Source of the DNA: a virus | Taxonomy: Duplodnaviria > Caudoviricetes | IMG/VR virus record: IMGVR_UViG_3300025652_000254 | Span: 1-34,118 of that record | Direction: 5' to 3' (one strand) | DNA length: 34,118 bases | Part shown: piece by piece, positions 5,256 to 27,300 of the stretch | Layout of the letters: every line of letters starts with the position of its first letter | How positions within the stretch are numbered: the first letter of the stretch is position 1 | Position numbers and translations under genes: made by a program | Notes under the pieces: generated by a model | What the model was told of the DNA's origin: nothing | Database searches by the model: none | Seen by the model: the letters and a program-made list of their open reading frames with translations, nothing else

Positions 5256-6791
5256 ATGAAAGTAATAGACAACAAGGCGCTGCTGTTGCGGCTACGTGAT
5301 CCACGGAAAGTTACCGAGGTCATACCAAAGAGTAAGGAGTTATCAGGTAACCGTGTGGTGGTTAACTGGGGCGTAGACGAGACCCACGTACTCAAGAATC
5401 TAAACATAAAAGCGCCATCGCCCATCGAAGGCAAGTATAAGTGGACGGGTAAGTACAAACCGTTCGAGCACCAGAAGACCACGGCTGGGTTCCTGACACT
5501 CAACAAACGTGCGTTCTGTTTCAACGAGCAGGGTACAGGCAAGACCGCCAGTGCTATCTGGGCAGCAGACTTCCTGATGAAACAAGGCCGCATCAAACGT
5601 GCTCTGGTCATCTGCCCTCTATCTATTATGGATTCGGCGTGGCGAGAAGACCTGTTTAGTTTTGCTATGCACCGCAAGGTAGATATAGCGCACGGTTCAG
5701 CGAAGAAAAGAACCGCTGTGATCGAAAGCGATGCGGAGTTCGTAGTAATAAATTATGACGGGGTGGCAATCGTAGCGGACGCCATATCCAACGGTGGGTT
5801 TGACCTAGTGATTGTGGACGAGGCCACGCACTACAAGAATGCCCAGACTGACAGGTGGAAGACACTCAACAGGCTACTCAGCCCTGATACGTGGCTGTGG
5901 ATGATGACGGGTACACCCGCTGCACAGAGTCCGCTGGATGCGTACGGTCTGGCTAAACTTGTTAACCCGAAAGCTGTACCACGCTTCTTTGGCTCGTTCC
6001 GCGATCAAGTCATGTACAAAGTGACTAACTTCAAGTGGGTGCCTAAGCCCGATGCCACCGAGACAGTATTCAGTGCACTGCAACCAGCGATACGGTTTAC
6101 CAAGGAAGAGTGTCTTGACCTACCTGACATCGTGTACACAACTCGTGAGGTACCGCTGACCCGTCAGCAAGAGAAGTATTACAAAGAACTGAAGAACCGC
6201 ATGGTCATGGAAGCTGCGGAAGAGACAGTCACGGCAGCTACAGCAGCGGTCAACATGAACAAGCTGCTACAAATCAGTTCTGGTGCGGTGTACACCGATG
6301 ACAATGAGGTGGTGGAGTTCGACATCAAGCACCGATACAAGGTGCTACGTGAGGTAATTGACGAGTCCAGTAAGAAGGTACTCGTGTTCGTACCGTTCAA
6401 GCATACGATCCAGCTACTTACTGACAAGCTACGCAAGGACAAGATACCTACCGAGGTCATTAGTGGGGCTGTCAGTGCCACCGAGCGCACGCGCATATTC
6501 AAAGAGTTCCAAGAGACAGATACCCCACGAGTGCTAGTCATCCAGCCGCAAGCTGCGGCACACGGCGTTACGTTGACCGCTGCTAATACAATTGTGTGGT
6601 GGGGGCCAACCAGTTCGGTAGAAACATACGCACAGGCTAACGCCCGCATCCACAGAGCGGGGCAAGACCATAAGTGCACAGTGGTACAGTTACAAGGATC
6701 TCACATAGAAAAGCGTGTGTACGCATTACTAGATAACAAAATAGACACACATACAAAAATTATTGATCTTTACAAAGAAATACTTGATTAA
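5256..6791 (+). CDS. SNF2-family (SF2) helicase/translocase
   Basis: Motif I NEQGTGKT, Ia LVICPLS, II VDEATH, III MTGTP, VI QANARIHRAGQ. ATG at 5256 with GAAGGG SD is preferred over 5193. Confidence 0.92.
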   Translation: MKVIDNKALLLRLRDPRKVTEVIPKSKELSGNRVVVNWGVDETHVLKNLNIKAPSPIEGKYKWTGKYKPFEHQKTTAGFLTLNKRAFCFNEQGTGKTASAIWAADFLMKQGRIKRALVICPLSIMDSAWREDLFSFAMHRKVDIAHGSAKKRTAVIESDAEFVVINYDGVAIVADAISNGGFDLVIVDEATHYKNAQTDRWKTLNRLLSPDTWLWMMTGTPAAQSPLDAYGLAKLVNPKAVPRFFGSFRDQVMYKVTNFKWVPKPDATETVFSALQPAIRFTKEECLDLPDIVYTTREVPLTRQQEKYYKELKNRMVMEAAEETVTAATAAVNMNKLLQISSGAVYTDDNEVVEFDIKHRYKVLREVIDESSKKVLVFVPFKHTIQLLTDKLRKDKIPTEVISGAVSATERTRIFKEFQETDTPRVLVIQPQAAAHGVTLTAANTIVWWGPTSSVETYAQANARIHRAGQDHKCTVVQLQGSHIEKRVYALLDNKIDTHTKIIDLYKEILD

Positions 6792-6812
6792 GCCATTACC
6801 TACCACTATATT
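6784..6812 (+). promoter_or_regulatory. Sigma70-like promoter
   Basis: TTGATT (6784-6789), a 17-nt spacer and TATATT (6807-6812), running into one of the few intergenic gaps. Confidence 0.6.
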
Positions 6813-6842
6813 ACCTTTCTCGGCAATGGAAGGACGAAGATC

Positions 6843-8171: not shown

Positions 8172-8921
8172 ATGGCTGAAGCAAATATGTACTACACAAT
8201 CGAGGGTGTGAAAGCCCTTTACCCAAGACTCGACGCTACCTACAAGTTCGATAACAAAGCGAACGGTGGTAAGGGTGGGTCTGTTAAGTGTGACCCGCTG
8301 GACGACGGCGCGGAATACTCTATGTCTTTCGTGATGTCTGAAAGCGAAGCCAAAGCCTTGTACAAGGCAATGGCAGTGGGCTACAAAGCTAAGAAAGAAA
8401 AGAGCTGGCCTGATAAGTTTGCCCTACCGTTCAAGAAGGACGATGACGGTAACTACATCGGCAAGTGCAAGTTGAAAGGTGCTTACGGTACCGACAAGAC
8501 CACGCCACCACTACAAGTGGACGCGCAGAACAACAAACTGCCAGCGGACTTTCAGTTGACCAGCGGTAGCACCGTGAACCTTGCCTTCACTTTCGTACCG
8601 TACTCTATGCGTGACAACGGCGTTAGCCTACGTCTGAGCGGTGTACAGGTGATCGAATACGTGCCGATGGTGTCACGTTCGCCCTTCGGTGTTGTGGAAG
8701 GCGGCTTCGTAGCACAACCTGATAACCCGTTTAGTGATACTACTAGCAGTGTCAAGAGCACCGATGTCGCGTTAGACGACGATGACTCTGACGATATATT
8801 TGGCGATGAGCCAGATACCTCCGAAGTGGAGGAACCCAAGAAGGTCGTAAAGAAATCTGCCCCCGCACCCAAGGAAGATGACGACGATCTGAGTGCCATT
8901 GTTGACGGTTGGGATGACTAA
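8172..8921 (+). CDS. Single-stranded DNA-binding protein, T7 gp2.5/DUF2815-like
   Basis: OB-fold-like motifs LPFKK, LTSGSTVN, GVSLRLSGVQVIEY, and a long acidic tail ending DGWDD. SD AAGGAG. Confidence 0.75.
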   Translation: MAEANMYYTIEGVKALYPRLDATYKFDNKANGGKGGSVKCDPLDDGAEYSMSFVMSESEAKALYKAMAVGYKAKKEKSWPDKFALPFKKDDDGNYIGKCKLKGAYGTDKTTPPLQVDAQNNKLPADFQLTSGSTVNLAFTFVPYSMRDNGVSLRLSGVQVIEYVPMVSRSPFGVVEGGFVAQPDNPFSDTTSSVKSTDVALDDDDSDDIFGDEPDTSEVEEPKKVVKKSAPAPKEDDDDLSAIVDGWDD

Positions 8922-8937
8922 CCACTAACAATCACTC

Positions 8938-8989
8938 CACTATGGCTAGGTTTTGCCGAAAAGGATGCGCCGACATCCCTGCCATAGTG
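8938..8989 (+). other. Three-way-junction structured element upstream of the primase
   Basis: Outer stem CACTATGGC/GCCATAGTG encloses the hairpins TTTT-GCCG-AAAA and GGATG-CGCCGA-CATCC. Confidence 0.6.
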
Positions 8990-9011
8990 TCTCTCGGCAT
9001 TGGGTGCAACC

Positions 9012-11936
9012 ATGAATACAAGAGAATTTTTACGGTGGGTACTACCCACAGAAGGTGTGTACGTCGCTCTACAATACGGCCTAGCGTCGAACGGGGTACG
9101 GCAGACATACTTTCACTCAACAGATGAATTAGCAGAAGCCGCCGAATATCACGACAGTGAAGGGTGGGACATGTACTTTGCGATGAGTAACTTCAAAGAA
9201 GAAGGTACCCGCAAAGGTGATGACGCTAAACAGATTAAGTCATTCTTCTTAGACTTAGACGTTGGCGAAGACAAAGTAGCTAAGAACGAGGGGTTCGCTA
9301 CACAGGGGGAGGCGCTACGTAGGCTACAAGAATTTATCGTAGCCCTAGAACTACCAAAACCTCTTATCGTTAATTCTGGTCGTGGCATACACGTTTACTG
9401 GGTGCTATCTGAACCCGTTGCTGTAGAGCAGTGGAAGGTAGTGGCTGACCAGTTCAAGGCTAAGTGCAAAGAGTTCGGGCTTGAGATAGACCCCGCAGTA
9501 CCTGCTGATATAGCGCGGGTTCTTCGCATAGTGGGTACGCATAACCACAAACCTGATACCCCTGCGCCAGTAGAAGTCATAGGTAAGACTCCTGATACGG
9601 TTAACTTTGACTTCTTCGCCAGTAAGCTGGGGATGGACACGATACCAGTTCCCAAGAAGTACGTACCTGCGGAGGGGCCAGCGAGCTTACGCGATGCGAT
9701 CATTCAGAACTATAAGCACGAGTTCAGAACCATACTGCTCAAGGCACAGAACGGTAACGGGTGTGAGCAACTACGCCGCATAATAAAAGGCCAAGCCGAA
9801 ACGAGTGAACCTATGTGGAGGGCAGGTCTGTCCATCGCTAAGTTCTGCGAAGACGGTGAGAAAGCCGCGCACAAGATCTCAAACCAACACCCCGAATACA
9901 CGCCAGAGCTAACGCTAAAGAAGCTGGATCTAATTAAGGGGCCGTACCGCTGCACAACATTTGACGAGAATGAAGGCGGTATCTGCACGGAATGCCCTCA
10001 CTGGGGTAAGATCAGTTCACCGATTGTGCTAGGGCGCAAGGTGGCTGAAGCAGAAGCCAATGAAGACGGTACGTATGTAAATGATCTTCAAGATCAGCAA
10101 CTACAAACAGTTGAAGGTACGCTACTTGAAAAGTTGGAAAACCAAGATCTTTCTACACAACACGTTATACCAGTCTACCCGCGCCCATACTTCCGTGGTC
10201 AGAACGGCGGTGTCTATGTCAGGAACATAAGCCAAGACGGGGAAGTTGATGAGCACGTCATCTACCATAACGACATTTACATTACGCAGCGTTTGTTAGA
10301 TATAGAGGACGGGGAGTCTGTAGTTTGTAGGATACACCTGCCACAAGACGGTGTACGTGAGTTTACGATGCCTCTTACGGCGGTCACTTCACGAGAAGAA
10401 TTTAGAAAAAACATGGCGATGCAAGGTGTTGCCATCCCTCAACTAAACGATTTGATGCAATATATGATTACTTGGGTAAACGAATTACAAGCAACCTCTA
10501 CAGCAGCCACGGCACGTCGCCAGTTCGGTTGGGTAGACGAGAACATGGACGCTTTTGTTGTAGGAAACAAAGAAATACGCGCAGACCGTATTGACCACAA
10601 CCCACCGTCCACACCGACAGCCGCACTAATCCCATACCTCAAACCGAAAGGTACGCTGGAGGCGTGGAAAAAGATGGCTAATTTCTACAACACGCGGCCC
10701 GAACTTGTGATGCACCAGTACGTTGTAAGCACAGCGTTTGGCTCTCCGTTAATGGCCTTCTTGCCTCAGAAGGCTTGTGCGTTACACATACACAGCCCAC
10801 TTAGTGGGTGCGGCAAAACAGCAGCTATACGGGTAGCGGGTTCGGTGTGGGGTGCTGAGAAAGGCATGATGATAACCGCAAAGGATACCGACGCGATAAA
10901 GTTTAATCGTTCGGAGGTGCTGCACAACCTACCGTTTTACATAGACGAATTGACCAATGAGAAAAGTGAGCAGCTAAGTGACTTAGCGTATCAAATATCC
11001 TCTGGGGAACAGCGTGGGCGTATGGCTGGTGGGGCTAACCTTGAACGTGCTCGTGGCGAGCCGTGGCACCTCTCATGTGTAACTACAGGCAACGCCAGTG
11101 TCATTGAACGTATTGCAGCGGAAAAGCAAGCGCCGAAAGCAGAGGCGCAGAGGATAATGGAATGGAGGGCGCAGCGGGTATTCTCCAGCACGGAGGAGAA
11201 GAAAGGTACGGATGCGTTCGATAGGTCTATCGAAGAAAACTATGGGCACGCTGGGGTTATTTATATCCAGTGGGTCATGCAGAACCTAGAAGACGTTAAG
11301 AAGCTCGTACTTGGGTTTCAGCGTAAGATTGACGAGGCGGCAGGGCTTACATCAGAAAACCGTTTCTGGTCTGCCGGAGCTGCTACCACACTAGCTGGGG
11401 CGTACATCGCTAACAAGCTGGAGCTAATCGACTACGACATGAAGGGCTTATTTAAGTGGACTGTTAACCTACTTAAACTAAACCTGCAATCGGTTAACGA
11501 TATGGGGTCATCAGTAGAACAAACACTTAACGACTACCTGACTGAAAACTATAACAACATACTGGTAATCAAGAGCACGGACGATCTGCGTAGTGGTTCC
11601 GGTAATGGGTTGGACAGCATCGTCATACCCGATGCACTACCGAAGGGTAGGCTAGTAGCGCGGTTCGAGACGGACACGAAGAAGGCGTACTTAGTCCCGA
11701 GGTTCTTGAAGGCTTGGTGCGCCACACATCAGATTAACTACGGCGCATTCACGAGCGACCTGATTAACAAGTTAGGTGGTAAGCGTGGATCTATGCGGTT
11801 AGGTAAAGGCACGCACATAGGGTCGGCCATGCCTGCATATAGAGTGCTGATAGTTGACTGCAAGGTGTTTAATGCAACTAACGAAGATGGAGAAAGTTTA
11901 GATGATGACCCTCAAGACGCACGACTTGAACCCTGA
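9012..11936 (+). CDS. AEP/RepB'-type primase fused to a DUF927 and P-loop helicase region
   Basis: FLDLD, NSGRGIHVYW, RVLRIVGTHN; Cys cluster (RC..F, CTECPH); Walker A SGCGKT and Walker B FYIDE. ATG at 9012. Confidence 0.88.
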   Translation: MNTREFLRWVLPTEGVYVALQYGLASNGVRQTYFHSTDELAEAAEYHDSEGWDMYFAMSNFKEEGTRKGDDAKQIKSFFLDLDVGEDKVAKNEGFATQGEALRRLQEFIVALELPKPLIVNSGRGIHVYWVLSEPVAVEQWKVVADQFKAKCKEFGLEIDPAVPADIARVLRIVGTHNHKPDTPAPVEVIGKTPDTVNFDFFASKLGMDTIPVPKKYVPAEGPASLRDAIIQNYKHEFRTILLKAQNGNGCEQLRRIIKGQAETSEPMWRAGLSIAKFCEDGEKAAHKISNQHPEYTPELTLKKLDLIKGPYRCTTFDENEGGICTECPHWGKISSPIVLGRKVAEAEANEDGTYVNDLQDQQLQTVEGTLLEKLENQDLSTQHVIPVYPRPYFRGQNGGVYVRNISQDGEVDEHVIYHNDIYITQRLLDIEDGESVVCRIHLPQDGVREFTMPLTAVTSREEFRKNMAMQGVAIPQLNDLMQYMITWVNELQATSTAATARRQFGWVDENMDAFVVGNKEIRADRIDHNPPSTPTAALIPYLKPKGTLEAWKKMANFYNTRPELVMHQYVVSTAFGSPLMAFLPQKACALHIHSPLSGCGKTAAIRVAGSVWGAEKGMMITAKDTDAIKFNRSEVLHNLPFYIDELTNEKSEQLSDLAYQISSGEQRGRMAGGANLERARGEPWHLSCVTTGNASVIERIAAEKQAPKAEAQRIMEWRAQRVFSSTEEKKGTDAFDRSIEENYGHAGVIYIQWVMQNLEDVKKLVLGFQRKIDEAAGLTSENRFWSAGAATTLAGAYIANKLELIDYDMKGLFKWTVNLLKLNLQSVNDMGSSVEQTLNDYLTENYNNILVIKSTDDLRSGSGNGLDSIVIPDALPKGRLVARFETDTKKAYLVPRFLKAWCATHQINYGAFTSDLINKLGGKRGSMRLGKGTHIGSAMPAYRVLIVDCKVFNATNEDGESLDDDPQDARLEP

Positions 11937-12138: not shown

Positions 12139-12229
12139 TGATAAGGTCGTCCGGTCTCCTGCTGAAAGGTCTTATCGCCTTCCTACCCCCTTACCGTAAC
12201 CACCCCTTCTTGCGGTAAGGGGGTTTTTT
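12139..12229 (+). ncRNA. Candidate small RNA with exposed anti-Shine-Dalgarno loop
   Basis: Stem GATAAGGTC/GGTCTTATC with CCGGTCTCCT in the loop, a CCTTCCT linker, then an intrinsic terminator. Lies downstream of an extended -10. Confidence 0.45.
12185..12229 (+). terminator. Rho-independent terminator at the convergence of the two gene blocks
   Basis: 15-bp stem ACCCCCTTACCGTAA/TTGCGGTAAGGGGGT followed by a T-run. Confidence 0.88.
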
Positions 12230-15200
12230 ACAAGAACCCTTCACCCGAATCCACCGTACGCTTCATGTATGGCGATAGCGTTGTACCGTTGTGCATCTCC
12301 GCAGAACGGGTCTCGTGCCCACGTATTGACCTATCAATAGTGTCACCTGTTATACGTTTCTGGCGATCTCGGCGCACGGCACTGGACTTGTTGAACTCTC
12401 GCATAGATCGCCGTGCATCACGCATACCTTCTCTGTCACCGAATCTCTTGGCAACGTAGTAACGTCTCAGCAGGTCACGGCGTTTAGCACTCGCAGCTAT
12501 GTCTAGGCGTTTAGCTGTAGATGTCTCGTCCGCTTGTCTGGTGTAATCGACGGGCGGAAACCCTAGTAGCTGCGTAGCCAAATCACCGGCTGTGAGATCA
12601 TCGTAGATAGGATCACCGCGCCGAGTCAGAATGCCCTCATCCCTCGGGTACCTGATAACAGCTTTATAAGCATTACGTACAGCGCCCGGCATTAGGTCTT
12701 CTATACCACGCTCTATCTCGCCTTCACGTAGTTTGTCTATGCCATCTCTACCTCGTGAGTAGATGCTCCATGCAGGGCCACCAAACAGGTGAGCAATCTC
12801 TTCTTCTGGCGATGGATCACTGTTGAATCTGTCGGCTTCAAATAGCAGGTCGGTCAGCTTAACGCGCTGCGATACATCAACCCCAGTTATTTCAGACAGA
12901 GCGCCCTTGAATAGCACTTCACTGTCTAGGTACTGCCGTAGCATGGTGTCGGTGTCTTCTTCGTAGTCTTCTCTAAACATGTCAATAAGCATGGAGACTG
13001 CACCGTACAACGGTAGACCCTGTACCCCAGCGAAGAACAGAGCAGATAAATGTACACCGGCAAGCTGTTTCAGAGCCTCATTACGTAGCTCTCTGCTCTT
13101 AGCGTCATTGCCCGGAAAAAAGTTCTCTATAGCTTGTCTACCAGACTTAAACATCGTGTAGTACATCTGTATGCCGTACGCTTTATACATCAGCGCAATA
13201 CGACCTAAACTCTCACGGGCGTACCGTGGGCCAGTTTCTAGTGTGGCACCACCGTTGATTAGCTGCGTCTCACGTACAGCTTCTTCTGCGGCTTTCTTCT
13301 TGTCACCATCAAACTTCTTTAGTGCGAGTTTATACGCTGCCACCATCGTAACTTGACGATTCATTACTTCTGCTTCATGGAACATAAGAGCCGAAGCGTT
13401 TGTCACCGCGTCCATCTTAGACATCTTACGCCCCGCCTGACTCGTGCTGAGTGTGTCGGCAATGAACGACGAGTTAAGCTGCCCCCGCCTAGAAGCAAGC
13501 TCCATCAACGGTAGAAGGTCTTTCAATTCCTTTGTTTGCGCTGCATCGAGGTCTAGGTCTTTACGTACTTCGTAAGTGACTCGGCCATCTTTGTCGCGGG
13601 AGAACGTATAGTAGTTATCCAGCGATGGTAATGCCTTGTCTTTGAGGGCTTCTCTCGCTGCGTTGAGGTCACCTTTACGTAGCGCTTCTCTTACAGACCG
13701 TGGCGTTCTTGCGTCCCCGACTAAAGTAGCTATGTCCTTGTTCATTGGAGAACCCATAAACAACTTAGTAGCACCGCTTAGAGCGGTTCGTGTGGCTCCG
13801 AACCCATACTTACCTGCCAGCATCGGGTATGCGAACAACGGTATCTGCGACAAGTTTACCAGCGCAGACGAGGCGTTGAAGCCGATAGTCCACATGAATG
13901 CCATACGGTTTGCGTTCTTAGCGAAACTGTCCAGTGGCGGATTGACGGCAAATCTAGCGCGGTCTTTTACCTCTTCGATTTCTGGGCTGTTCGCATCTGC
14001 CATTTTAGGGTTGGCTTCAAGCATCTCTTGTACGGCGTTGTCGATTAGCCGTGAGTTCTTAATGCGCTCTACCTGCCGTGCCAGATCAAAAGCCTTCGTA
14101 CGTGCCGCTTCCACAGCATCTACATCATAACCTTCAGTGCCCTTACGTCGAAGCAGTGACTTAGCGAAAGAAGACTCTGGCAGGTACTCAATAAACAAAC
14201 GTGTTATCTGTTCCTGAACCTCTGGGTCTACTTTGTTCACCTTCATAATGCCCAGTATGCTGGAGACAAAAGAACCAGAGGGCGCGTCCTCGTAGGAGGC
14301 TTTGTCACTAGGGCTGAACGTCGATACTCCGTAACCTTCTGCTTCGTAGGCTTCCGCTGCCCTGAACCGTTCCGCAGCGTTCTCGTATGCAAACACGGCA
14401 GAGTCCGCGCCTTCCTTGGGGTTCTTCACAGACAGGAAGTACGTGCCGGTACGAGTCAGCGGGAAGTATGGCTCCAGCTTAGTCGCCTCTAACATCTTAG
14501 CGTATAGACCGTTCTTGAGGTTGGTCTTCGCTTGTTCTGCTATGGGCAGTCCGTCAATACGATTTTGCAGCGTGTCATTAAGTTGGTCGTACTGATCTTT
14601 ATATAGCTTACGCAAAGCGGCGTAGTTCTTCCTACCCTCGGCACCAACCATCTTGCTGTTGTAGACCGCCCGTAGTTCTTTGTAGCGGTCTATTTTTAGC
14701 TGCTTAGTGCCGTCTACGGGCTGGTTGCCGTACCGTTTTTGTGCTTGCTGTGGCGTTAGCTCTGGATCTACTTGGTCAACGGTACTGTCGTAGATCAAGT
14801 TATTCCACGCCTTAATCGTTTCTCCAGACTGTTTAGCAGCCCACTCTCGTATAGGTTGTAGGTTGTTTCTGACCGCTTGCTCTGCGGTAGTTAGGCCACC
14901 ACGTTGGTTTTCTATAGCAGCGAAAACCTTATTAACACCGACTACACCTGCCCTTTCAAGCTCTACTTCGACGGCGTTGTTAGGTAAGAGACCAAGTATT
15001 TTGCGTTTTAGTCCGGTGTTTTTCTGCCCTGCTGTGAGTGCACCGTACTCGCCAACTATTCTTTCTTTTGCACGCTCTATCGGCCCTTTAGGTAGGGCGT
15101 CCTTGAGTCCTTCCTCTACTCTACGTACGCCAGCAGGGTCGGTCATAGATGCTAAGAGAGGAGCACCACGGTGCTTGGCGGCAGGTGCCAGTATGTCTTC

Positions 15201-18017
15201 AATTAACTGTTGGGCTTCACGCTGTGCAGTACCACGTTCTTTGCCCAGCCCGAGGAAGTTAGATACCACGCGGATAAATTCTTGCCAGACACTAAGCGGC
15301 CTACCGTCTGGGTTGATTCGAGCTAGCTCACCTTGGAAGGTGGGGTTAGTAAAGGCTTCAGCGACAAACTCTGCTACGTTCTTAGACCCATAAGAGTTAC
15401 GTAGGTACTCTTTGCTAGCCTCATGCAGCTTTATCAGCTTCTTAGTAGTCGGGTGTGACGGGTTCTTCAGAGTGCTAATCGTTGCAGCGTGCGCCATCTC
15501 GTGCAGTAGGACATACACATCTGTGTAGTCTTTATTCAGTACGATTGTGTTGTCTGCGGTTATGAACCGTCCGTCAACCTGTTTACCGTCTACTGTACCC
15601 AACTGGCTTGGGGGCACGGTCATTATCTTGGTGTCACCAGTGAGTTTAGCCAGACGGCCAGCTACTCGCTTGATGAACTTATCGTCTGACTTGTTAGATA
15701 GCTCTAGTAAGGCTCGACGTAGTTCGTTGTTACGTACCGCACGTTTTACAGTGTCAGGCAGTGAAGCATCCAACACCTCGGTGTAGTCTCTTGGAGGTGC
15801 GTTGAGGACTTGTTCGGATGCGACACGCATAGCGTCTGCTTTACTGAGACCTTCTTCTTTTACGAGCCTGTCTCTTTCTGCACGACGTTCAGCTAAAAGA
15901 CTTTGCTTGTCGGCAGTTTTTTCCTCTGGGGCACGTAGATCTACGTCCGCCGTAGGCTCTTCTACAGTAGGTTCTGCCGGGGCGGGTGTAGGTTCCTTCG
16001 TCAAAACCTCTTTTACGGTAGCTGGTGTGGCTGCGGCAGTGGCGGACATAGCCCGCTCTGCACGGCGTTGGGCGTCCACAGTCTCTTGAGGTATGACTTG
16101 CGTATCTACATCGGCAAGCTGTTCGTTGGCTTTTATACCTTCTTCAGTAACTTTCTGTAGCTTCTTCTCAGCACGAGCCAACTTACGTTGGTTAGCCTGC
16201 GTTGGTTTTACTGTTGCAGCTTCTTCGGCTTTAGCTACTTCAGTTCGGGCTGCGTTAGCCTTGGCTACTGCCGAAGTAACCTTTCGGGCTAGTGCACCAC
16301 GCTGTTTTCTCGTTCCAGAAACAGGTCGTCCAACGCCTCTTCCAGCATCTCCCACTGGTTCTCCGACAAGTGCAGCAGGTTCCACGGTATCCGCACGTCT
16401 TGTAGGGACTCCCACGCCTCGTAGATCAGCTTCATCGCCTGTTCTACTTCTTGCTGCGACAGGTTCTCTTTTGCGCGGGGTAGGTAGATCACGTTGCTCA
16501 CTAGGTACTCCTTCTAGCAATCGGGTAACGCCACGTCGAACCTTTTGAGATTTTAGACGGTTAGCTTCGTTAGTTAGCTCAACCCGGACTTCTGGGTCAT
16601 CTAAGTCTTTACCTATAACACGTCTGCGTATAGCAGCATTCGGCGCAAACCCAGCGGTAGTGAGGTCTTCTTCTGTGACAGGACGCGATTCGGGTGTTGG
16701 TTCTGCTTCTGGCGCTACTGCGGCTCCTTCTGCTACAGCAAGTTCAGTCGGAAATAGGTCAGGCTGTTCTCGTTGAGCAATCTCAGCACGTTCTCTACCT
16801 GTCCGCGCTTCGTCAGATACTGGCTCTTCAGTGATCTGTTGTTCTCTATCACGTAAGTTGGTTCGGTCTAAGGCTTCTTGTCTACCTAACACATCGCCTT
16901 CAGGCGTTACAGCTAACGTCTCACCAGCAATAGTTTCACCTTCTGGTGCAGGTAGACCTCGCAACTGTGGCCCAACACGTTCTGGCTCTAGCCCCGGCAG
17001 TGATATTTGGTCAGGGCTTACTTCGGCTGTACGTTCTTCCTCAAACAGCCTGTCTCGTTCTTCCTGATCTATGTCGTCTATGACTTCATCTATCTCAGGA
17101 GTACGCTCCTCTGCGTCGTCAAACAGTTCAAGTTGCCCTTCGGCTTCAGCTTCTTCAACAGCATCACCAATGGTCTTACCGGCTCTGCGTGGGGCGAACA
17201 GGTCAACAAGACCCTGTAAAATAGCACCGGCTCCAGCGCCTAATGCAGCTTCTTCTGCGGTACCGCCAAACGTCTCAGCAGCAGCGTTGTATTCTTGCTC
17301 GTTAAGATTTTGCAGTATGTTGGATGCAGCTTCCTGTGCACCCTCAAACCCACCTGTCACACCCGCGCTGTAGATACGTTCGCCAATGGTTTCGACCTTC
17401 TCAGGCGGTATCTTGTCAACTAGCTTGTTTAGCGTAGGTAGATCAGCGAACTTAACTACTTTTGCAACGGGGAGTATGTCTAGCAAACCGATTACTGTGC
17501 CCCGTACGGTGGCTTCACCACGTTTTTGCTCTGTAGTATCAGCGGCACGAGCACGCTCACTCGCCTCACCAGCACCGGCAGCACCGGCAGCTAACGCACC
17601 AAGACCCAAAGCCGCAGCACCGGGGGCACCAGCTATACCAGCGGCAACAGGTATAGAAGCAAGGCCAGCAACGGAACCAAGCGCGGAGCTTAGTTTGTAG
17701 GTAATAGATTCTGAGTCACCGCCTTCGGGACGGAAAGACTCCGCAATAGACTGAATACGCTCGCGTGCAGCTAGTTCGCTTTCTTCTTCCAGTGGCGCAG
17801 CGAGACCGAGTGCAGCCATCTCACCTACACCGACAACACCCGCACCGAATCCAGAGGTAATGTCCTCGAATATGCCGGTTTCTCGTGGTGCGCTGGTAGG
17901 GAGAGGGGTAGTACGCCCTACTAAAACACCCCTTAGCGCGTCTACAGCTTCTGTATCCCCAGCAGCTAGAGCGTTGCGGTACGCCCGATAAACTTTCTCT
18001 CTTGGTACTACTGGCAT
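12228..18017 (-). CDS. Large polyvalent internal virion/ejection protein with zincin-like metallopeptidase motif and PLxRFG/LPD-like C-terminal region
   Basis: 1929 aa. Gly/Ala hydrophobic N-terminal segments, LLHEMAH followed by EFVAEAF, YFPLTRTG. Last gene of the structural block. Confidence 0.75.
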   Translation of the reverse strand: MPVVPREKVYRAYRNALAAGDTEAVDALRGVLVGRTTPLPTSAPRETGIFEDITSGFGAGVVGVGEMAALGLAAPLEEESELAARERIQSIAESFRPEGGDSESITYKLSSALGSVAGLASIPVAAGIAGAPGAAALGLGALAAGAAGAGEASERARAADTTEQKRGEATVRGTVIGLLDILPVAKVVKFADLPTLNKLVDKIPPEKVETIGERIYSAGVTGGFEGAQEAASNILQNLNEQEYNAAAETFGGTAEEAALGAGAGAILQGLVDLFAPRRAGKTIGDAVEEAEAEGQLELFDDAEERTPEIDEVIDDIDQEERDRLFEEERTAEVSPDQISLPGLEPERVGPQLRGLPAPEGETIAGETLAVTPEGDVLGRQEALDRTNLRDREQQITEEPVSDEARTGRERAEIAQREQPDLFPTELAVAEGAAVAPEAEPTPESRPVTEEDLTTAGFAPNAAIRRRVIGKDLDDPEVRVELTNEANRLKSQKVRRGVTRLLEGVPSEQRDLPTPRKREPVAARSRTGDEADLRGVGVPTRRADTVEPAALVGEPVGDAGRGVGRPVSGTRKQRGALARKVTSAVAKANAARTEVAKAEEAATVKPTQANQRKLARAEKKLQKVTEEGIKANEQLADVDTQVIPQETVDAQRRAERAMSATAAATPATVKEVLTKEPTPAPAEPTVEEPTADVDLRAPEEKTADKQSLLAERRAERDRLVKEEGLSKADAMRVASEQVLNAPPRDYTEVLDASLPDTVKRAVRNNELRRALLELSNKSDDKFIKRVAGRLAKLTGDTKIMTVPPSQLGTVDGKQVDGRFITADNTIVLNKDYTDVYVLLHEMAHAATISTLKNPSHPTTKKLIKLHEASKEYLRNSYGSKNVAEFVAEAFTNPTFQGELARINPDGRPLSVWQEFIRVVSNFLGLGKERGTAQREAQQLIEDILAPAAKHRGAPLLASMTDPAGVRRVEEGLKDALPKGPIERAKERIVGEYGALTAGQKNTGLKRKILGLLPNNAVEVELERAGVVGVNKVFAAIENQRGGLTTAEQAVRNNLQPIREWAAKQSGETIKAWNNLIYDSTVDQVDPELTPQQAQKRYGNQPVDGTKQLKIDRYKELRAVYNSKMVGAEGRKNYAALRKLYKDQYDQLNDTLQNRIDGLPIAEQAKTNLKNGLYAKMLEATKLEPYFPLTRTGTYFLSVKNPKEGADSAVFAYENAAERFRAAEAYEAEGYGVSTFSPSDKASYEDAPSGSFVSSILGIMKVNKVDPEVQEQITRLFIEYLPESSFAKSLLRRKGTEGYDVDAVEAARTKAFDLARQVERIKNSRLIDNAVQEMLEANPKMADANSPEIEEVKDRARFAVNPPLDSFAKNANRMAFMWTIGFNASSALVNLSQIPLFAYPMLAGKYGFGATRTALSGATKLFMGSPMNKDIATLVGDARTPRSVREALRKGDLNAAREALKDKALPSLDNYYTFSRDKDGRVTYEVRKDLDLDAAQTKELKDLLPLMELASRRGQLNSSFIADTLSTSQAGRKMSKMDAVTNASALMFHEAEVMNRQVTMVAAYKLALKKFDGDKKKAAEEAVRETQLINGGATLETGPRYARESLGRIALMYKAYGIQMYYTMFKSGRQAIENFFPGNDAKSRELRNEALKQLAGVHLSALFFAGVQGLPLYGAVSMLIDMFREDYEEDTDTMLRQYLDSEVLFKGALSEITGVDVSQRVKLTDLLFEADRFNSDPSPEEEIAHLFGGPAWSIYSRGRDGIDKLREGEIERGIEDLMPGAVRNAYKAVIRYPRDEGILTRRGDPIYDDLTAGDLATQLLGFPPVDYTRQADETSTAKRLDIAASAKRRDLLRRYYVAKRFGDREGMRDARRSMREFNKSSAVRRDRQKRITGDTIDRSIRGHETRSAEMHNGTTLSPYMKRTVDSGEGFL
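16289..16501 (-). CDS. Nested same-strand, alternative-frame 70-aa acidic protein
   Basis: SD AGAAGGAG (16508-16515) 6 nt before a GTG. Amphipathic helical sequence. The host frame here is low-complexity R/G/P/A. Confidence 0.6.
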   Translation of the reverse strand: MSNVIYLPRAKENLSQQEVEQAMKLIYEAWESLQDVRIPWNLLHLSENQWEMLEEALDDLFLERENSVVH

Positions 18018-19799: not shown

Positions 19800-20707
19800 T
19801 AAGAGACTCCTGTACCTTGTAGTACACCGTCTACGTACGTGTTTCCTTGAGCATCTGTGAATGCTCCTGTGTTGGGTATTATGGGTGGAGTTCCACCACC
19901 GCCGCCACCGCCGCCACCGCCACCACCAAACAGATTAAGAAGTTCACTGACACCCCCCGCACTGCCCAGCATGGTAGATAGTGTACTGGGCTGAGAGTAA
20001 CTGTAGGTTTGCGCTGCAATCGGCAATCCTTGTAGCAGCGACTGCTGGAACTGAACCTGCTTATAAGGGTAATCACGTTCTTCACGGAACTGCGCGTAGT
20101 CTTGCGCTATGCCTTCTTGTTCAATAGCACGTTGTTCAGCCCCGCCAACACGTTGAGCACCTAGCGCCTCTAATCCATACCCTCTATCACGAGCGAACTG
20201 CTCCCGACCTTGTTGATACGCTTGCGAGTAACCTGTTCCACGGATATTTGCTAAGTTCTCTAGTAGCGCACGGTTACCCTCTGCTTCTACTAAACCTAAA
20301 CGAGATCCGCCGAAAGCTCCGGCCTGCTGCATCCTAGCAGCGTTAGCCAACCGCACACGATCCGCTTCACGCTGTGCCGCCTGTAGCTGAGGCTGAAGAG
20401 CTGCTTCTGTATAAGGGTTCATATACTGTTGAGCAGTAGCAGCATCAAATGTAGCGGGGGTGGTGGGTACAGCTAGGCTAGCTAGTCCTGTAAACGCCTG
20501 TTGCTGTACGTCAGATGCTCCAGCAGACAACGGCCCCATGTAGGACTGGTAAGGTTGTTCCGAAAGAGCTTGCCCTCTACCCAGCATTTCTGTGACATAG
20601 GGGCCAGCAAACTCCGCAAGTGCACCTGATCTACCTACTTCTTGACCTACATTCGGATCTGCGGGAACAGTTACATCACCACCAGTGTTATATTTATACA
20701 TAGTCAT
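19799..20707 (-). CDS. Putative DNA transfer/pilot (ejection) protein
   Basis: 302 aa with YMNPY and AGAFGGSR motifs seen in podovirus internal proteins, Gln/Ala-rich, with a Gly12 run. Confidence 0.65.
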   Translation of the reverse strand: MTMYKYNTGGDVTVPADPNVGQEVGRSGALAEFAGPYVTEMLGRGQALSEQPYQSYMGPLSAGASDVQQQAFTGLASLAVPTTPATFDAATAQQYMNPYTEAALQPQLQAAQREADRVRLANAARMQQAGAFGGSRLGLVEAEGNRALLENLANIRGTGYSQAYQQGREQFARDRGYGLEALGAQRVGGAEQRAIEQEGIAQDYAQFREERDYPYKQVQFQQSLLQGLPIAAQTYSYSQPSTLSTMLGSAGGVSELLNLFGGGGGGGGGGGGTPPIIPNTGAFTDAQGNTYVDGVLQGTGVS

Positions 20708-20712
20708 TACCT

Positions 20713-21381
20713 TTATGCAGGTAGCATCTTCTGAGGTTTGATTTGCCTACCCTGTTTCGGGTTACCCGTGCGTTCTTTACGTACTCTGGTCATCATTTGG
20801 TGTAGCTGATTTGCACCGGCATCGGAGTTACCGTTACCTAGATGGCTCACCACATCCGCAGGTATGACAAACTCCCCATCGCTAAGGCGTGCTTCTTGTC
20901 TACCATCAATAGTAGCTGGAATCTTATCAGCCATACCATCCGTAATACCACCTAAGTAGTACCCTTTGTTCATGCCAATAGCACCGCCAGCAGCCATTCC
21001 AGCTAGCCCTTGCGCTTGTGTTTGGGCTTTTTGCCGTGCTTGCTCTACTGTCATAGACTGACGTTCAGGACGGTCAGCGTACTGAACATCACTGAAGTAT
21101 CTTCTACCAGCAGATCCGGGCCTACGGTTAGGGTCTGCCTGCATAGGTACGCGCTCTCGCACGGCCTCATACTCTGGAATGCTTCCTTGGTAGCCAACTA
21201 CAGGCGTTTTAGTGTCCATGATTCCAGTCTTAGTGGCTAAAGCTCCAAGCCCTGCGGTTCCAATAAGACTACCAACATCAGAACGAAAAAAATCACCAAC
21301 GCCCCCTAAAAACGTGTTTTCATTTCCAGTATCGGTAAAAGCACCGGACACGCCAGATGTAAGATCAGTCCACCAGCTCAT
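20713..21381 (-). CDS. Conserved virion-associated protein
   Basis: 222 aa. C-terminal DGMADKIPA...ARLSDGEFVIPADVVSHLGNG motif is recognisable from environmental podovirus proteins. Confidence 0.7.
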   Translation of the reverse strand: MSWWTDLTSGVSGAFTDTGNENTFLGGVGDFFRSDVGSLIGTAGLGALATKTGIMDTKTPVVGYQGSIPEYEAVRERVPMQADPNRRPGSAGRRYFSDVQYADRPERQSMTVEQARQKAQTQAQGLAGMAAGGAIGMNKGYYLGGITDGMADKIPATIDGRQEARLSDGEFVIPADVVSHLGNGNSDAGANQLHQMMTRVRKERTGNPKQGRQIKPQKMLPA

Positions 21382-24300
21382 TAGCTTTCTCCAATAATCC
21401 GTAATAGTTCGTCGTTTGCATCAATTATACCTCCACGTTTACGTCCAAACGGCAGTCTAGGCCGTGTAGTCGGTTGAACTGGCCCTCGTTCGATTGTGCC
21501 GTACGGTGTAGGGAACATAGACGCTCTTTGTTGCGGCCCGAATATACTACCAAAATCATACAGATAGTCGATCTGTGCCAAGGGAGATTGATCTACTGTA
21601 ACTTGTTGTCCTGTTATGTCTGCGGCACCCATGATCTGGCCTAACAGATCCCTACGGCGAGCCTGCTCCCCTTCTTGTGCGATTTGAGTCTGTATTGCCT
21701 GCTGCGACTGCATTTGCTGCTGCATCTGCTGCTGTTGCTGTAGCTCTTGCTGCTGTTGCAGTTCCTGTTGCGTCTGAATCTGTTGCTGTTGTTGCTGCTC
21801 CATCTGACGCTGTAGCGCTTGTTGCGTCTGCTGCTGTGCGGCGTATAGGCCCGTAGGAGCGAACATACTGTCAAGGTCAAACAGTACATCTTGCCCTGTT
21901 CTAGCTTGTTGCAGGAGGTCTAGGTCAGCTTGGTCTACTACACCGTCACCTGTTACGTCATAGGCTAGCTGTTCTTGTGTGTACGTAGCAGGGTCGTTGA
22001 TCGCTTCTTGCTGTGCGATAAGGTCAGCAACAAAGTCAATATCCGCATCAGTCACCTCAGAAGCAGGCTTACCTACAAGCTCCGCTACCGCTTCAATTTC
22101 GGCAGTCAGTGCACCCTCAGCGCCGCTAATTGCACGCAACAAATCAGCTTCAGTTTCACCGATTGCAGCGCGTAGGGACTCTTCAGACTCTCCGATACGT
22201 GTAAGTAAAGTTTCTTCGGTAACGCCAAGCTCGCTAGCAAGGTCGGATATAGAGGTACGCAGTGCCGTATCTCTGTCGGCACCTGCTTGTTCAGCTTCGT
22301 CAATCTTCGTCAGAAGGGTACGTGTTGTGGCGTCAACATCCCCAGACACATCTTCGATAGCTTTAGCTAATGCTTCATCCCGAGAAAGCCCTGCTGCCTC
22401 GTACTCAGCCATCTTGTCGAGGACGTTTGTTTCAAGGCCAGCTACTTCTCCAGATAGGCTTGTCTGTAAATCAGCTAACTCGCCCTTGAAGTCTTCTCGT
22501 ACAGAAAGCTCAGAGTCCGCTATGGCATCTAGTAAGGTTTCTTTTGTTGTACCTAGATCACTAGCAAGCTCGTCAACAGTCTTGGCTAGTGCTTCATCAC
22601 GGGACATCCCCGCTGCTTCGTATTCTGCTACTTTATTAAGTAGGGTCGTCTCAAGGTTAGCTACATCCCCAGACACGTCTTCGATAGCTTTAGTTAGTGC
22701 TTCATCACGAGACAACCCTGCTGCTTCGTATTCCGCTATCTTATCAAGGAGGTTTGTTTCAAGGCTGGCTACGTCACCAGATACATCCGCAACAGCTCTG
22801 GATAGTGCTTCATCACGCGACAACCCTGCTGCTTCGTATTCAGCTACTTTGTTAAGTAGATTTGTCTCAAGGCCAGCTACGTCTCCAGATACATCTTCGA
22901 TAGCTAAAGCTAATGCCTCATCACGGGAAAGCCCCGCTGCTTCGTATTCGGCTATCTTCTCAAGAAGGTTTGTTTCGAGGTTAGCTACATCCCCAGATAA
23001 GCTCGCCTGTAAGTTAGCTAACTCGGTTCCAAAATCTTCTCGTATGGCAAGTTCAGAACCCGCTATCCTGTCTAACAGGCTCTGCTCTGTTGTACCTAAC
23101 TCTGCGGATACATCTGCAACGGACTGCGATAGTGCCTCATCCCGAGAAAGTCCCGCCGCCTCGTACCCCGCTATCTTCTCAAGAAGGTTTGCTTCAAGGT
23201 TAGCTACGTCTCCAGCTAGACTTGCCTGTAAATTGTCTATCTCATCCTTGAACTCTTCCCGTATGGCAGTGTCGGAATTCGCTATTCTGTCTAACAGGTT
23301 CTGCTCTGTTGTACCTAGTTCTCCAGATACATCTGCAATAGACCGCGCTAACGCTTCATCGCGGGAAAGTCCTGCACCCTCATACTCGGCCATCTTCTCA
23401 AGGAGGCTTGTCTCAAGGTTAGATACATCTTCAGATAGAGTTGTTCGTAAGGCAGATAACTCGTTTGTGAAGTCTTCCCGTATGGCGAGATCAGAGTCCG
23501 TTATCCTATCTAGCAGGTTCTGTTCTGTTGTACCTAACTCTCCAGATACATCTTCGATGGCCTTAGCTAGTGCTTCATCACGAGAGAGTCCTGCGTTCTC
23601 ATACTCAGCCATCTTTCCAAGGAGGTTCGCCTCGATGTTGGACATACCTTCGGATAGGTCTGCCTGCAAACTTTCTAGTTCACCCTTGAAGTCTTCTCGT
23701 ATGGCAAGATCGGAGTCCGTTATTCTGTCTAACAGGTTTTGCTCTGTTGTACCTAGTTCTCCAGATACGTCCTCAATAGCTTTGGCTAACGCTTCATCAC
23801 GAGACAGCCCTGCGTTCTCGTACTCGGCCATTTTCCCAAGGAGGTTCGCCTCAAGGTTGGACATTTCCTCAGATAGATTTGTCTTTAGGGTAGTCAACTC
23901 ATTTCTGAAGTCTTCCCGTACGGCAAGTGCAGAGTCCTCTACAACGTCTAACAGGTTTTGCTCTGTTGTGCCTAGCTCTCCCGACACAGCTTCGATAGCT
24001 TGGGCCAGTGCTTCGTCCCGAGAGAGTCCTGCTGCTTCGTATTCAGCTACTCTATCAAGGATGCTTGCCTCAAGATTCGACATATCTCCGAGTAAACTTG
24101 CCTTTAGGCCCGTCAGCTCACCCTTGAAGTCTTCTCGTATAGCAAGTTCGGAATTTGCTATGGTGATTAACAGGTTTTCTTTTGTTGTACCGAGATCACC
24201 GGCAAGGTCGTCAATAGCCTGCGATAATGCCTCATCCCGAGAAAGCCCTGCATTTTCATACTCATTTACTTTATCGAGTATGTTTGCCTCAAGATTCGAC

Positions 24301-27300
24301 ATGTCCTCGGACAAACTTGTCTCTAGGGTAGTTAGCTCATCCCTGAAGTCTTCTCGTATGGCAAGCTCAGAGTCCGCTATAGTGTCCAGCAGGTTTTCTT
24401 CTGTTGTACCTAGCTCTGCGGATACATCTGCAATGGACTGTGCTAACGCTTCATCACGAGAAAGCCCTGTTGCCTCATACTCTGCTATCTTCTCAAGAAG
24501 GTTTGTCTCAAGGCTGGACATATCCCCAACCAAACTTGCCTTCAGATCGACTAACTCGTTCCTGAAATCCTCTCGTATGGTAAGTTCAGAGTTCGCTATA
24601 ACGTCTATTAGGGATTCTTTTGTCGTACCTAGATCACCAGCAAGCTCATCAATAGCCTGCGCTAACGCTTCATCACGAGAAAGCCCTGCTGCTTCGTATT
24701 CAGCCACTTTAGCGAGAATGCTTGTCTCAAGGTTCGACATATCCCCAAGCAAACTTGTCTTCAGATTAGCTAATTCGCCTTTGAAGTCTTCTCGTATGGT
24801 GAGGTTAGAGTTTGTTATAACGTCTAACAGCTCTGCCTTTGTTGTACCTAGCTCTGTGGACACCTCTTCGATGGCCCTAGCCAGTGCTTCATCCCGAGAA
24901 AGCCCTTCTGCTTGGTACTGATCCATCTTGCCAAGGAAACTTGTTTCGAGGGTAAGCATGTCTTGAGACACATCTTCAATAGCTTTGGCTAGTGCTTCAT
25001 CCCGAGAAAGCCCTTCCGCTTGGTACTGAGCCATCTTGCCAAGGATACTTGTCTCAAGATTAGCCATATCCTCAGATACAATCGTCTCTAGGACAGCTAG
25101 TTCGTCCCTAAAGTCTGTTCGTAAGGAAGACTCAGAGTCCCCTATGATGTCTAGCAGAGTTTGTGTTGTTGTGCCCAATTGACCTGCAAGCTCGCTAATA
25201 GCCTGCGCCAATGCTTCATCACGAGTCTTACCCTCTCCTTGTAGCTGATCTATACGGTCATTAAGCTGCTGCTCAGACTCTGTTAGCTGGTCGGACAACG
25301 CAGCTATTTGATCGTCTACAGGATCGACTACAGGATCGACTACAGGATCGACTACAGGATCGACTACAGGATCGACTACAGGATCGACTACAGGATCGAC
25401 TACAGGATCGACTACAGGATCAACTACAGGATCGACTACAGGATCGACTACAGGATCGTCTACAGGATCTGGCGTTGGGTTAAGTAAGCTACCGTCATCG
25501 TCAATGCCAGAATCCGTACGGGCAGTAGAGTCTGGGTTGATTGATTCAATCTGGTCTAGCAGACTGTCTAATTGCAAAGGCGTTGTGTTTGGATTACCAA
25601 GCAGCCCGTCTAGCTGAAGCATTAACATGTTTTCAGAGTATTCAGTCACATTGTCTGAAGCGTACTTTTCTGACTTACCTACAAACTCAGCCAAGTCTTC
25701 TTGTGTAGGTGTATACCCAATGTCAGTAAAGTAATCCCTAGCTTCTCGGTTAGTGACATACATCGGGTCGAAAACATCAGAACGTAAGCTGTTAAGCGCA
25801 GCCTCGGCTTGCCCAGACTCGGTTTGGCGTACGTACTGAGCGACCTGTTCGTTAGTTAATGTCAGACCTTCAAGCGCTGCGACATCTATGGCTTCTTGTG
25901 CGTCGATATAGCTGCGGTCTACTAAGTCTGCAACGCTAGCAGCTAACCTATCTTCAGCGATGTCGCCGGTAAAACCAAGTATGTCCGCTTCAGTGGGGGC
26001 GTAATCAGGGTTTTCAATTTGGAACGTATCTTTGGATTCGGTATATGTGGTGTAATCCGCGTCAAACGCATCATTTAATAGGGTGGTTTGTAGACCGCCG
26101 TATTCATCACTGGCTATACCAAATTCTGCTAAGGCCGCTTTAGCCTGTGCATCATTAATCAGCCCCCTCTTAGCGCCTTCTATTGTGGCATTTATACCTG
26201 CATGAGTAGAGCGTACAGCCCCAGCCAAAGCATCTCGTGCGCCATCAACACCTAACAAAGCCGATGTAACTGCGGTGCCGCTAATAAGACCTCCCGCACC
26301 GGCAGAAGCTATTGCAGCGCCCCAGTCGCGGTTTGGATCTGTAGAAGTTAGAGTAGCCTCTAACGCTGTCCCAGTTAGTGCTTCTTCTCCGTATTCAAAA
26401 ATCCCTTCTTTACCCGCAGTTTTTGCAGCCCGCAGCCCTGTAACGAGAGCGTCTCCAGCATTGACACGATCACCTAGCTCTTTAGCCAAAGCCTCCATTT
26501 TTGGGTTTAAGGTGGTTTTTTTACCCCCGAGTAAGAGTTTGTCTAGTGCCTCGCCACCCAAACCAAAAGATGCAAGCGACAGCACCGTAGCGGTACCACC
26601 GCTAATCATTGCAGCATCATGGGCAAACTTGTGGATCTCATCCATTTGCCCCGGAAATAGACCATTCTGGTCAACTAAATTGCCGATAGGTATACCGGCG
26701 GATTGCATAAGAGCTACTGTGGCTTCGTTGTTTTCTCGTAACTGCTTTAGTTTCGCATCAAACGCCTCGTCATAAGCCCCGTCAGCGCTACCCCCAAAAG
26801 CCTCGCTAGCGTCGGTAGCAGCGGCGGTAGTCAAACCAGCCCTCGTACCAATCTGAGTTGCTGCAACTTTAGCAGAAGCGGATACCGCGCCTTTCCCTGC
26901 AATTTTTGCTGCGGATAACGCAGCGCCCTTCGCTATTACTCCTGCACCACCACCAACAAGTAAAGGGCCGATTTCTTGGAAAAGCTCTACCCCTGCAAGT
27001 TCAGCCAGCATGATAGTTGGGTCGTCAGCAAGTGCGTCTGTCCATGCTTGAGTAGTGCCCCAGAACCCTTCTGCTTCTTGTATTGTCCCCCACATGTCTT
27101 TAACGCGGGCTTGGTATCCTTCGGTATTCGCAGAATCGCCAAGTTCAAGAAGTTTATTTACGTATTGACCAAGTTCTAAGTCATCTGGGCGTGCCCCAAA
27201 TAGGTAAGTAAGCCCCAACATGGCTTTGGTAAAACCCGCACCCGCACGGATCATGTTTGCAGTGGTGTTAATTGCACCCGCTTCCAAATTAGCGGCTAGC

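Follow-up and report, generated by a model that had tools for sequence, protein, structure and literature searches.

The replication operon of phage record IMGVR_UViG_3300025652_000254 (34 kb) carries, between its SSB and primase genes, an element that comparison with relatives identifies as a genuine structured RNA and as a divergent RNA of the int-alpA type (Rfam RF02996). The comparison established three stems (P1, P2 and P3), the strands that join them, and a P3 loop whose overlapping bases match two sites arranged in tandem downstream. The best reading of this architecture, and in our judgement a somewhat probable one, is a two-state cis pseudoknot switch that would throttle primase translation. 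In the literature searched, int-alpA is catalogued as an sRNA without a function; the two-target architecture would give it a concrete mechanism as a translational switch that is cheap to test. What is new is an intercistronic int-alpA-type copy with a short P2, located on a core primase and swapped in and out among close relatives. With this copy, int-alpA is seen not just at accessory nucleases and initiators but also at a core phage primase, in the middle of an operon. Throughout, the window denotes the whole stretch of DNA that was analysed (34,118 nucleotides).

Genomic setting and fold of the element

In the replication operon, the SNF2 helicase gene is followed by a sigma70-like promoter and then by a Gam-like gene, an HTH_17 gene, orf218, the SSB gene and the primase gene. 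This gene order is conserved in relatives down to 44% primase identity, and the promoter at 6784-6812 is also kept in relatives. Family-wide, the operon -35 box (window 6784-6791) is formed by the final helicase codons and the stop (TTG-x-TAA/TAG). The element lies upstream of a phage gene on the same strand, with 22 nt between the end of P1 and the primase ATG at 9012. This ATG, rather than TTG 9000, is the likely start, because relatives align at ATG 9012. The N-terminal part of the primase is similar to clusters that include RepB_primase members (26% share, score 0.96), and a sequence search of this part against the PDB returned nothing at E<=0.1; the likeness to RepB'/AEP clusters is taken as a lead only. 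No tRNA was found in the window. The virion module, on the minus strand, has huge ORFs at 12228-18017 (1929 aa, LPD39) and at 21381-30356 (2991 aa, apparently repetitive).

A preliminary description of the locus, made from the DNA alone, drew a 9-bp outer stem, CACTATGGC (8938-8946) with GCCATAGTG (8981-8989), that enclosed two hairpins, both presenting GCCGA (8955-8959 and 8969-8973). The outer stem is present, and so are both GCCGA words, but the first of these is not a hairpin loop. The supposed first hairpin, TTTT-GCCG-AAAA, had a pair probability of 0.05-0.08, compared with 0.53-0.61 for a P2 of the GG(UUU)CC type. It displayed zero two-sided changes and was 69.7% paired, versus 70.9% in shuffles, and the G of the first GCCGA was found in just 23 of the 57 core-bearing primase relatives. 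The twin-loop fold was ruled out by these pair probabilities, the missing covariation and the count for the first G. By comparison, a single GCCGA loop is present in the element: the first GCCGA is read as mostly the 3' strand of P2 plus junction, and CCGAA as conserved junction core rather than a loop (Table 1). Across core-bearing primase relatives, 4 to >20 nt separate GG from CC, and because this length varies, GG..CC was assigned to P2 and GAARA to a junction strand. P2 length is hypervariable in relatives, and the window copy is without a P2 palindrome.

The folding energy of the element alone was not above chance (z -0.77). The structural covariation that the preliminary description had proposed to look for was found in primase relatives, in which P1 and P3 covary. 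With the corrected fold and a pseudoknot between the loop and UCGGC, 99.7% of 399 cells were paired in 19 primase orthologues, and two-sided changes occurred in 10 of the 21 pairs (0/500 shuffles; relatedness uncorrected). The junction strands UA/GAARA/CU were invariant in the 19 orthologues, 16 of which had been gathered as primase relatives, and the core GGCUAGG-var-CYGAARAR-var-YUGCC was present in 57 of the 69 primase relatives examined. G.U exceeded A.C in P1 on the plus (message) strand (22 vs 8).

Table 1. Coordinates of the element, its predicted sites and the surrounding operon features in the window
Feature	Position	Strand	Remarks
Sigma70-like promoter TTGATT-17-TATATT	6784..6812	+	Overlaps helicase stop; predicted start of the Gam-like/HTH/orf218/SSB/primase operon
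Leader UCUCGGCAAUGG	6818..6829	+	At predicted +1; 11/12 identical to 8992-9003
T7 gp2.5-like SSB gene	8172..8921	+	Stop codon 16 nt 5' of P1
P1 5' strand CACUAUGGC	8938..8946	+	Two-sided changes in 6/9 pairs
J1/2 UA, conserved junction strand	8947..8948	+	Invariant in orthologue alignment; fits Rfam int-alpA consensus CUAG
P2	8949..8957	+	G8949-C8957, G8950-C8956, U8951.G8955, loop UUU
J2/3 GAAAA (GAARA), conserved junction strand	8958..8962	+	Overlapped by the first 'loop' of the preliminary description
P3 hairpin GGAUG/CAUCC, loop CGCCGA (8968-8973)	8963..8978	+	Predicted switching loop
J3/1 CU (8979-8980) and P1 3' strand GCCAUAGUG	8979..8989	+	Fold and orthologue alignment
Site A UCGGC(A), proximal decoy	8994..8999	+	Predicted to pair with loop GCCGA (pseudoknot); -9.1 kcal/mol as isolated duplex
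Predicted SD GGGUG overlapping site B GGUGC (9003-9007)	9002..9007	+	Predicted to pair with GCGCC 8967-8971
974-aa primase with DUF927 domain	9012..11936	+	PHROG primase/helicase matches; predicted regulated gene

Assignment to int-alpA and gene context of the family

The int-alpA motif is reportedly the work of Weinberg et al. 2017, and RF02996 is typed 'Gene; sRNA' with 71 positions in Rfam. The Rfam consensus shares with the window element the core CUAG..CGAAAAG..CCUG and the order of the stems. Two features of int-alpA recur in the window, namely a three-way junction of P1/P2/P3 with strands UA, GAAAA and CU, and complementarity of the P3 loop to the tail 3' of P1; in the consensus itself, the loop CCuU and the tail aAgGG represent the loop:site A match. 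The window copy is unlike the model in its 3-bp P2 with a UUU loop and its 6-nt P3 loop, and Rfam gave no match to it, either at the gathering cut-off (35.8 bits) or at E<=10. In one Rfam scan, no candidate got through the initial filter. The window copy is also intercistronic, before a primase, and its site B falls outside the Rfam model, past the 3' end. In front of the same primase, an orthologous copy (L185) passed the RF02996 cut-off with 37.1 bits, a copy with the same CGCCGA loop (L172) fell narrowly under it with 34.6 bits, and two near-identical copies (L165 and L175) were unreported by Rfam. Since the window copy is without a cut-off score, it is filed as an int-alpA-type variant and not as a cut-off member. 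A model from 16 cut-off members outside the primase family scored the window copy at 38.7 bits (E 9e-9) and its next best place at 9.0 bits, a favourable test, because the training set of 16 shares a search pattern drawn from the core of this element.

The core pattern returned an estimated 440 IMG/VR stretches, 650 metagenome stretches and 85 GTDB genome matches, and a variant core pattern about 250 matches. The stem filter was passed by 34 of the 85 GTDB matches; the 51 that failed were mostly taken as chance. Rfam placed int-alpA above the cut-off in 8/20 and 9/20 sampled pattern loci. The patterns used to gather most of the family fix the core, so that its invariance in those sets is by construction. 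The available portion of the main text of PMC5737381 does not name int-alpA, and in the available portions of PMC12370729 and PMC13612085 the name occurs in one presence table and in one unrelated gene-order label. Literature searches, in which subscription papers were mostly uncovered, yielded no functional study of int-alpA, nothing relevant on mechanism and nothing for 'RF02996'; the original int-alpA supplement may discuss function and may already draw the loop:site A pseudoknot.

The genes downstream of 62 family members were scanned and comprised 26 replication initiators, 10 primases, 11 HNH/homing nucleases, 4 other genes and 11 without a match. Family copies precede unrelated genes, in genomes labelled with many phyla. 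A -10 box was found directly 5' of 30 of 131 members (3.2 in the control), and other members are located just after an upstream stop, as here.

This gene context bears on an alternative that the preliminary description had raised, namely that the element is a single-stranded DNA hairpin serving as a priming signal for a RepB'-like primase. RSF1010 ssiA/ssiB are priming signals of this kind, and the element does adjoin a primase whose N-terminus resembles the RepB_primase clusters mentioned above. However, the fold is also found before HNH nucleases, O-like initiators and a glycosyltransferase, and site B, the second loop target, tracks the SD and the start codon. In addition, the element invariably lies on the message strand, frequently just after a -10 box, and is absent from many primase relatives. 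Because the fold precedes non-primase genes and site B tracks the SD, the analogy with ssiA/ssiB appears very improbable.

Some loci are recorded here for their copies. In the cultured Pseudomonas phage PS-1 (L637; NC_029066, about 20164-20284), a copy precedes the HNH gene gp42; it is 92.6% like the Rfam-positive copy of L087, and the phage is a usable experimental model. A DUF3800-VII RNA match (L087, 4367-4451) lies ~800 nt downstream of the int-alpA copy of that locus. Two copies ~1 kb apart in L411 have the loops ACCACGA and ACCUACGA, each matched by its own downstream site pair. Well-formed copies were also seen in L369 and L349, one on a contig of a Methanothrix-labelled MAG and one in Rhodopirellula sallentina, the latter preceding a 420-aa ORF that is integrase-like by eye.

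The P3 loop, its two downstream sites and a candidate switch

For the family-wide analysis, 266 members were parsed by stems only (P1 at least 4, P2 at least 2, P3 at least 3, sum at least 12). Of these, 21 were dropped for loops >12 nt or cut flanks, and the remaining 245 formed 135 clusters; loops matched to the tails of other members served as the permuted control. The best helix between the P3 loop and its own downstream 40 nt scored 14.81, versus 11.05 permuted (z 18.7), and a second downstream helix, after masking, 12.49 versus 8.95 (z 25.5). For the 45 loops without anti-SD-like words, z was 9.5 for the first site and 11.9 for the second. Covariation between loop and target, likewise proposed at the outset, is therefore a family-wide property of the P3 loop and its downstream sites in these 135 clusters.

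The positions of the two sites are regular. In the 100 two-site clusters, site A mostly starts 5-12 nt after P1 and site B mostly 11-16 nt after A, and the loop segments for A and B overlap by at least 3 nt in 93, so that one loop cannot hold both. Of the 87 clusters with a start found, 64 have a site B that ends 4-11 nt before the start codon; B is the better SD in 70, versus 16 for A. A longer P1 goes with a shorter linker to A (rho -0.63), a trade-off of the kind that a fixed-geometry cis pseudoknot predicts. As isolated duplexes, loop:A and loop:B had mean energies of -8.9 and -8.6 kcal/mol, respectively, a difference that was not significant.

In the window, the complement TCGGC was described as lying just downstream, in TCTCGGCATTGG (8992-9003), over the primase start. 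It does lie just downstream; its position over the start was not borne out, since UCGGCA sits 13-18 nt upstream of ATG 9012, beside the predicted SD. A second loop-complementary site, GGUGC at 9003-9007, had been missed and overlaps the predicted SD. It pairs with GCGCC 8967-8971 (-9.8 kcal/mol as isolated duplex), for which the last P3 pair must open. The loop helices of the window copy are just 5 bp each, and the site B helix takes one P3 base. Among 19 close orthologues, 4 of the 5 loop:A pairs never vary, and the G.U/A.C test on the loop:site helices was null (27 vs 29). Site A was also tried as a partner of the first GCCGA, in the junction core, and this pairing was rejected; it was 87% paired with no two-sided change, and its variable pair was broken in 12/16. 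As a 6-bp UGCCGA/UCGGCA helix it is possible in the window genome (-10.3), though not selected as a covarying pair. Sites A and B can also pair mutually at window 8997-9007 (GCAU/GUGC, 3-nt loop, about -2.4 kcal/mol), and a U.G to C-G change occurs in this A:B hairpin in L035. The hairpin would add an SD block, to be opened by loop:A pairing.

The preliminary description had proposed an RNA switch gating primase expression, and of this proposal the loop-to-downstream pairing is supported comparatively; the twin loops and the upstream target are not. In the two-state cis pseudoknot switch, the junction would pack P3 beside P1, so that the loop could reach the strand leaving P1. Pairing of the loop with site A (UCGGC) would leave the SD free (ON), and pairing with site B (GGUGC) would cover it (OFF). 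With A transcribed before B, the nascent message would begin ON. The near-equal stability of the two helices would let the loop compete with the 30S subunit for the SD and cap initiation, which would keep at a low dose a protein of which little is needed. Such an output fits the other targets of the family, i.e., replication initiators and homing/HNH nucleases. An external trigger would not be required for throttling of this kind, and since P2 palindromes are absent from the window copy and not enriched in the primase family, action in cis is favoured here.

Occurrence in primase relatives and comparison with known systems

The core, the loop, A and B are all kept in 54 of 69 close primase relatives, and 3 close relatives with a replaced loop have lost site A too. 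Other primase lineages have matched loop/A/B sets of their own (UACCGA/UCGGU/GGUA; GCCGCA/UGCGG/GCGGC; CCGCCGUC/GACGGCG/GACGGC). The loop:A match is absent in 20 of 41 core-bearing primase rows, and 75 distant primase loci comprised 41 without the junction, 28 with the junction and another loop, and 6 with a CCGA loop. Since the loop:A match or the junction is often absent at primase loci, either the switch would be dispensable or the junction has another job. On the primase tree (FastTree, no support values) the element is patchy, and near-identical primases differ in it. Because leaders differ between near-identical primases, the leader seems to have been repeatedly swapped or lost, as a swappable regulatory module. 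In many primase relatives, the junction core is degenerate or replaced by plain (GC-rich) hairpins.

Individual loci illustrate this range. The junction is present in L278 and L286 and absent with the close primases of L265, L280 and L284, which carry an unrelated plain hairpin; L109 and L271, L274 and L281 likewise have different leaders on closely related primases. The loci L055-L066, L214-L224 and L293-L304 are junction-less, with a single hairpin with P1-like arms (CCRCGGCTA...TAGCCGTGG) upstream of the primase, possibly a collapsed form of the element. Nine loci (L246, L252, L254, L256, L285, L258, L261, L147 and L268) keep the junction with the P3 loop reduced to 4 nt and without targets, yet YUCGG persists before their RBS; complementarity between CUUUCGGU and the junction strand ACCGAAAAG was noted in the L246 group and may reflect either another switch or a vestige. 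The element is absent from cultured phages whose primases belong to this family (Pseudomonas phage Rollin and Rhizobium phage RHph_TM3_14A); in Rollin, a plain hairpin alone is found upstream of the primase.

Two further explanations are touched by this occurrence. The junction could chiefly be a signal for pausing, attenuation or processing between SSB and primase, with the loop pairings secondary. Of 135 clusters, 41 have a U-rich stretch after P1, and both the plain GC-rich hairpins and the junctions without loop complements would suit such a signal. However, the window copy has UCUCUC and no U-tract, and two covarying targets, one of them at the SD, would be left unexplained; we regard this explanation as highly unlikely.

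The other explanation is that a host metabolite or protein binds at the UA/GAARA/CU junction and flips the switch, which would give replication and nuclease genes a riboswitch-like timing. The invariance of the junction strands in the orthologues is consistent with a binding site, but family-C three-way junctions need short invariant junction strands, and a purely structural junction of this family would show the same. The balance of the loop:A and loop:B helices and the position before unrelated genes, in genomes labelled with many phyla, also suit a ligand, and a multistem junction with a pseudoknot agrees with the 'sophisticated RNA' criterion in the available portion of PMC5737381. Against it, the core is degenerate or replaced in many primase relatives, as described above, and no ligand candidate emerged, so that we consider a ligand-flipped switch unlikely. 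A broader proposal is doubtful to a similar degree: int-alpA RNAs might form a phage-borne, cross-phylum, riboswitch-like class, in which the invariant junction would bind a conserved host ligand or protein and flip the loop between decoy and SD, and phages would plug the leader in and out of core genes, tying replication and homing-nuclease activity to host state. If the junction does sense a ligand, it would represent a new riboswitch class in phages.

The preliminary description also noted a near-identical copy of the downstream site, TCTCGGCAATGG at 6818-6829, which was confirmed, six bases after the sigma70-like promoter. At the predicted +1, UCUCGGCAAUG is found in 15/15 distinct rows with a (C/U)GCCGA loop, and CGGU(A) is in the leader of 3/5 rows with UACCG loops (L108/L192 and L109 carry CGGUA). 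Among random window 12-mers, 5% have a copy with at most 1 mismatch in the 2.15 kb upstream, a rate probably inflated by coding repeats, and at this chance rate the 6818 repeat is suggestive only. No enrichment of loop complements was detected in the upstream 40 nt (z -0.1, 135 clusters), and other genes' RBS as loop targets were null family-wide (z 0.2-1.1). A 6818-type leader is kept in L044, which is without a GCCGA loop; the loop:A match is present and a complementary leader absent in L278/L283; and related leaders occur in phages without the junction. An upstream target of the CI/c4 type, as first suggested, could not be upheld as a general feature, given the upstream z and the leader of the loop-less L044, and the 6818 leader as a loop target would be at most lineage-specific.

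A CI/c4-like antisense role was weighed on the same evidence. The loop might have the leader at 6820 of its own transcript as a further partner, or site B might be bound in trans by a copy that has been processed or dimerised, providing negative feedback or immunity. The leaders that complement their own loops speak for such a role, and P2 palindromes, which would allow kissing dimers, are enriched family-wide (59/99 vs 36.9 +/- 4.5). A precedent is P4 CI RNA, which according to the available portion of PMC4825925 pairs with seqA and seqC, up- and downstream. However, the null results upstream and at other genes' RBS and the uncoupling of leader and loop in L044 and L278/L283 argue against it. 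P2 palindromes are also not enriched in the primase family (3/14 vs 2.4) and are absent in the window copy, and a consensus scan for antisense sigma70 promoters gave no peak in 92 clusters and none near 9010-9100 in the window. We therefore consider this role quite unlikely.

The c4 antisense RNA of P1/P7 is a small branched RNA whose loop matches sites in its own transcript. Like it and P4 CI RNA, the element is a small branched phage RNA with a loop that matches its own transcript, and the operon around it leads up to replication genes; unlike them, its targets are both downstream and in tandem, and it has no family-wide upstream target. The Rfam check for a C4-type model gave no match in the window, and C4 or CI identity was ruled out in favour of the int-alpA type. 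In the repZ/repA switches, a leader peptide and an antisense Inc RNA are required, and the pseudoknot has a single partner. Such pseudoknot switches, of IncI/IncB/IncL-M plasmids, are named in reference titles of PMC10724649. As in these, a loop-to-downstream pseudoknot by the RBS would control the translation of a replication protein; unlike them, the element has no antisense promoter signal and presents a three-way junction with two tandem partners.
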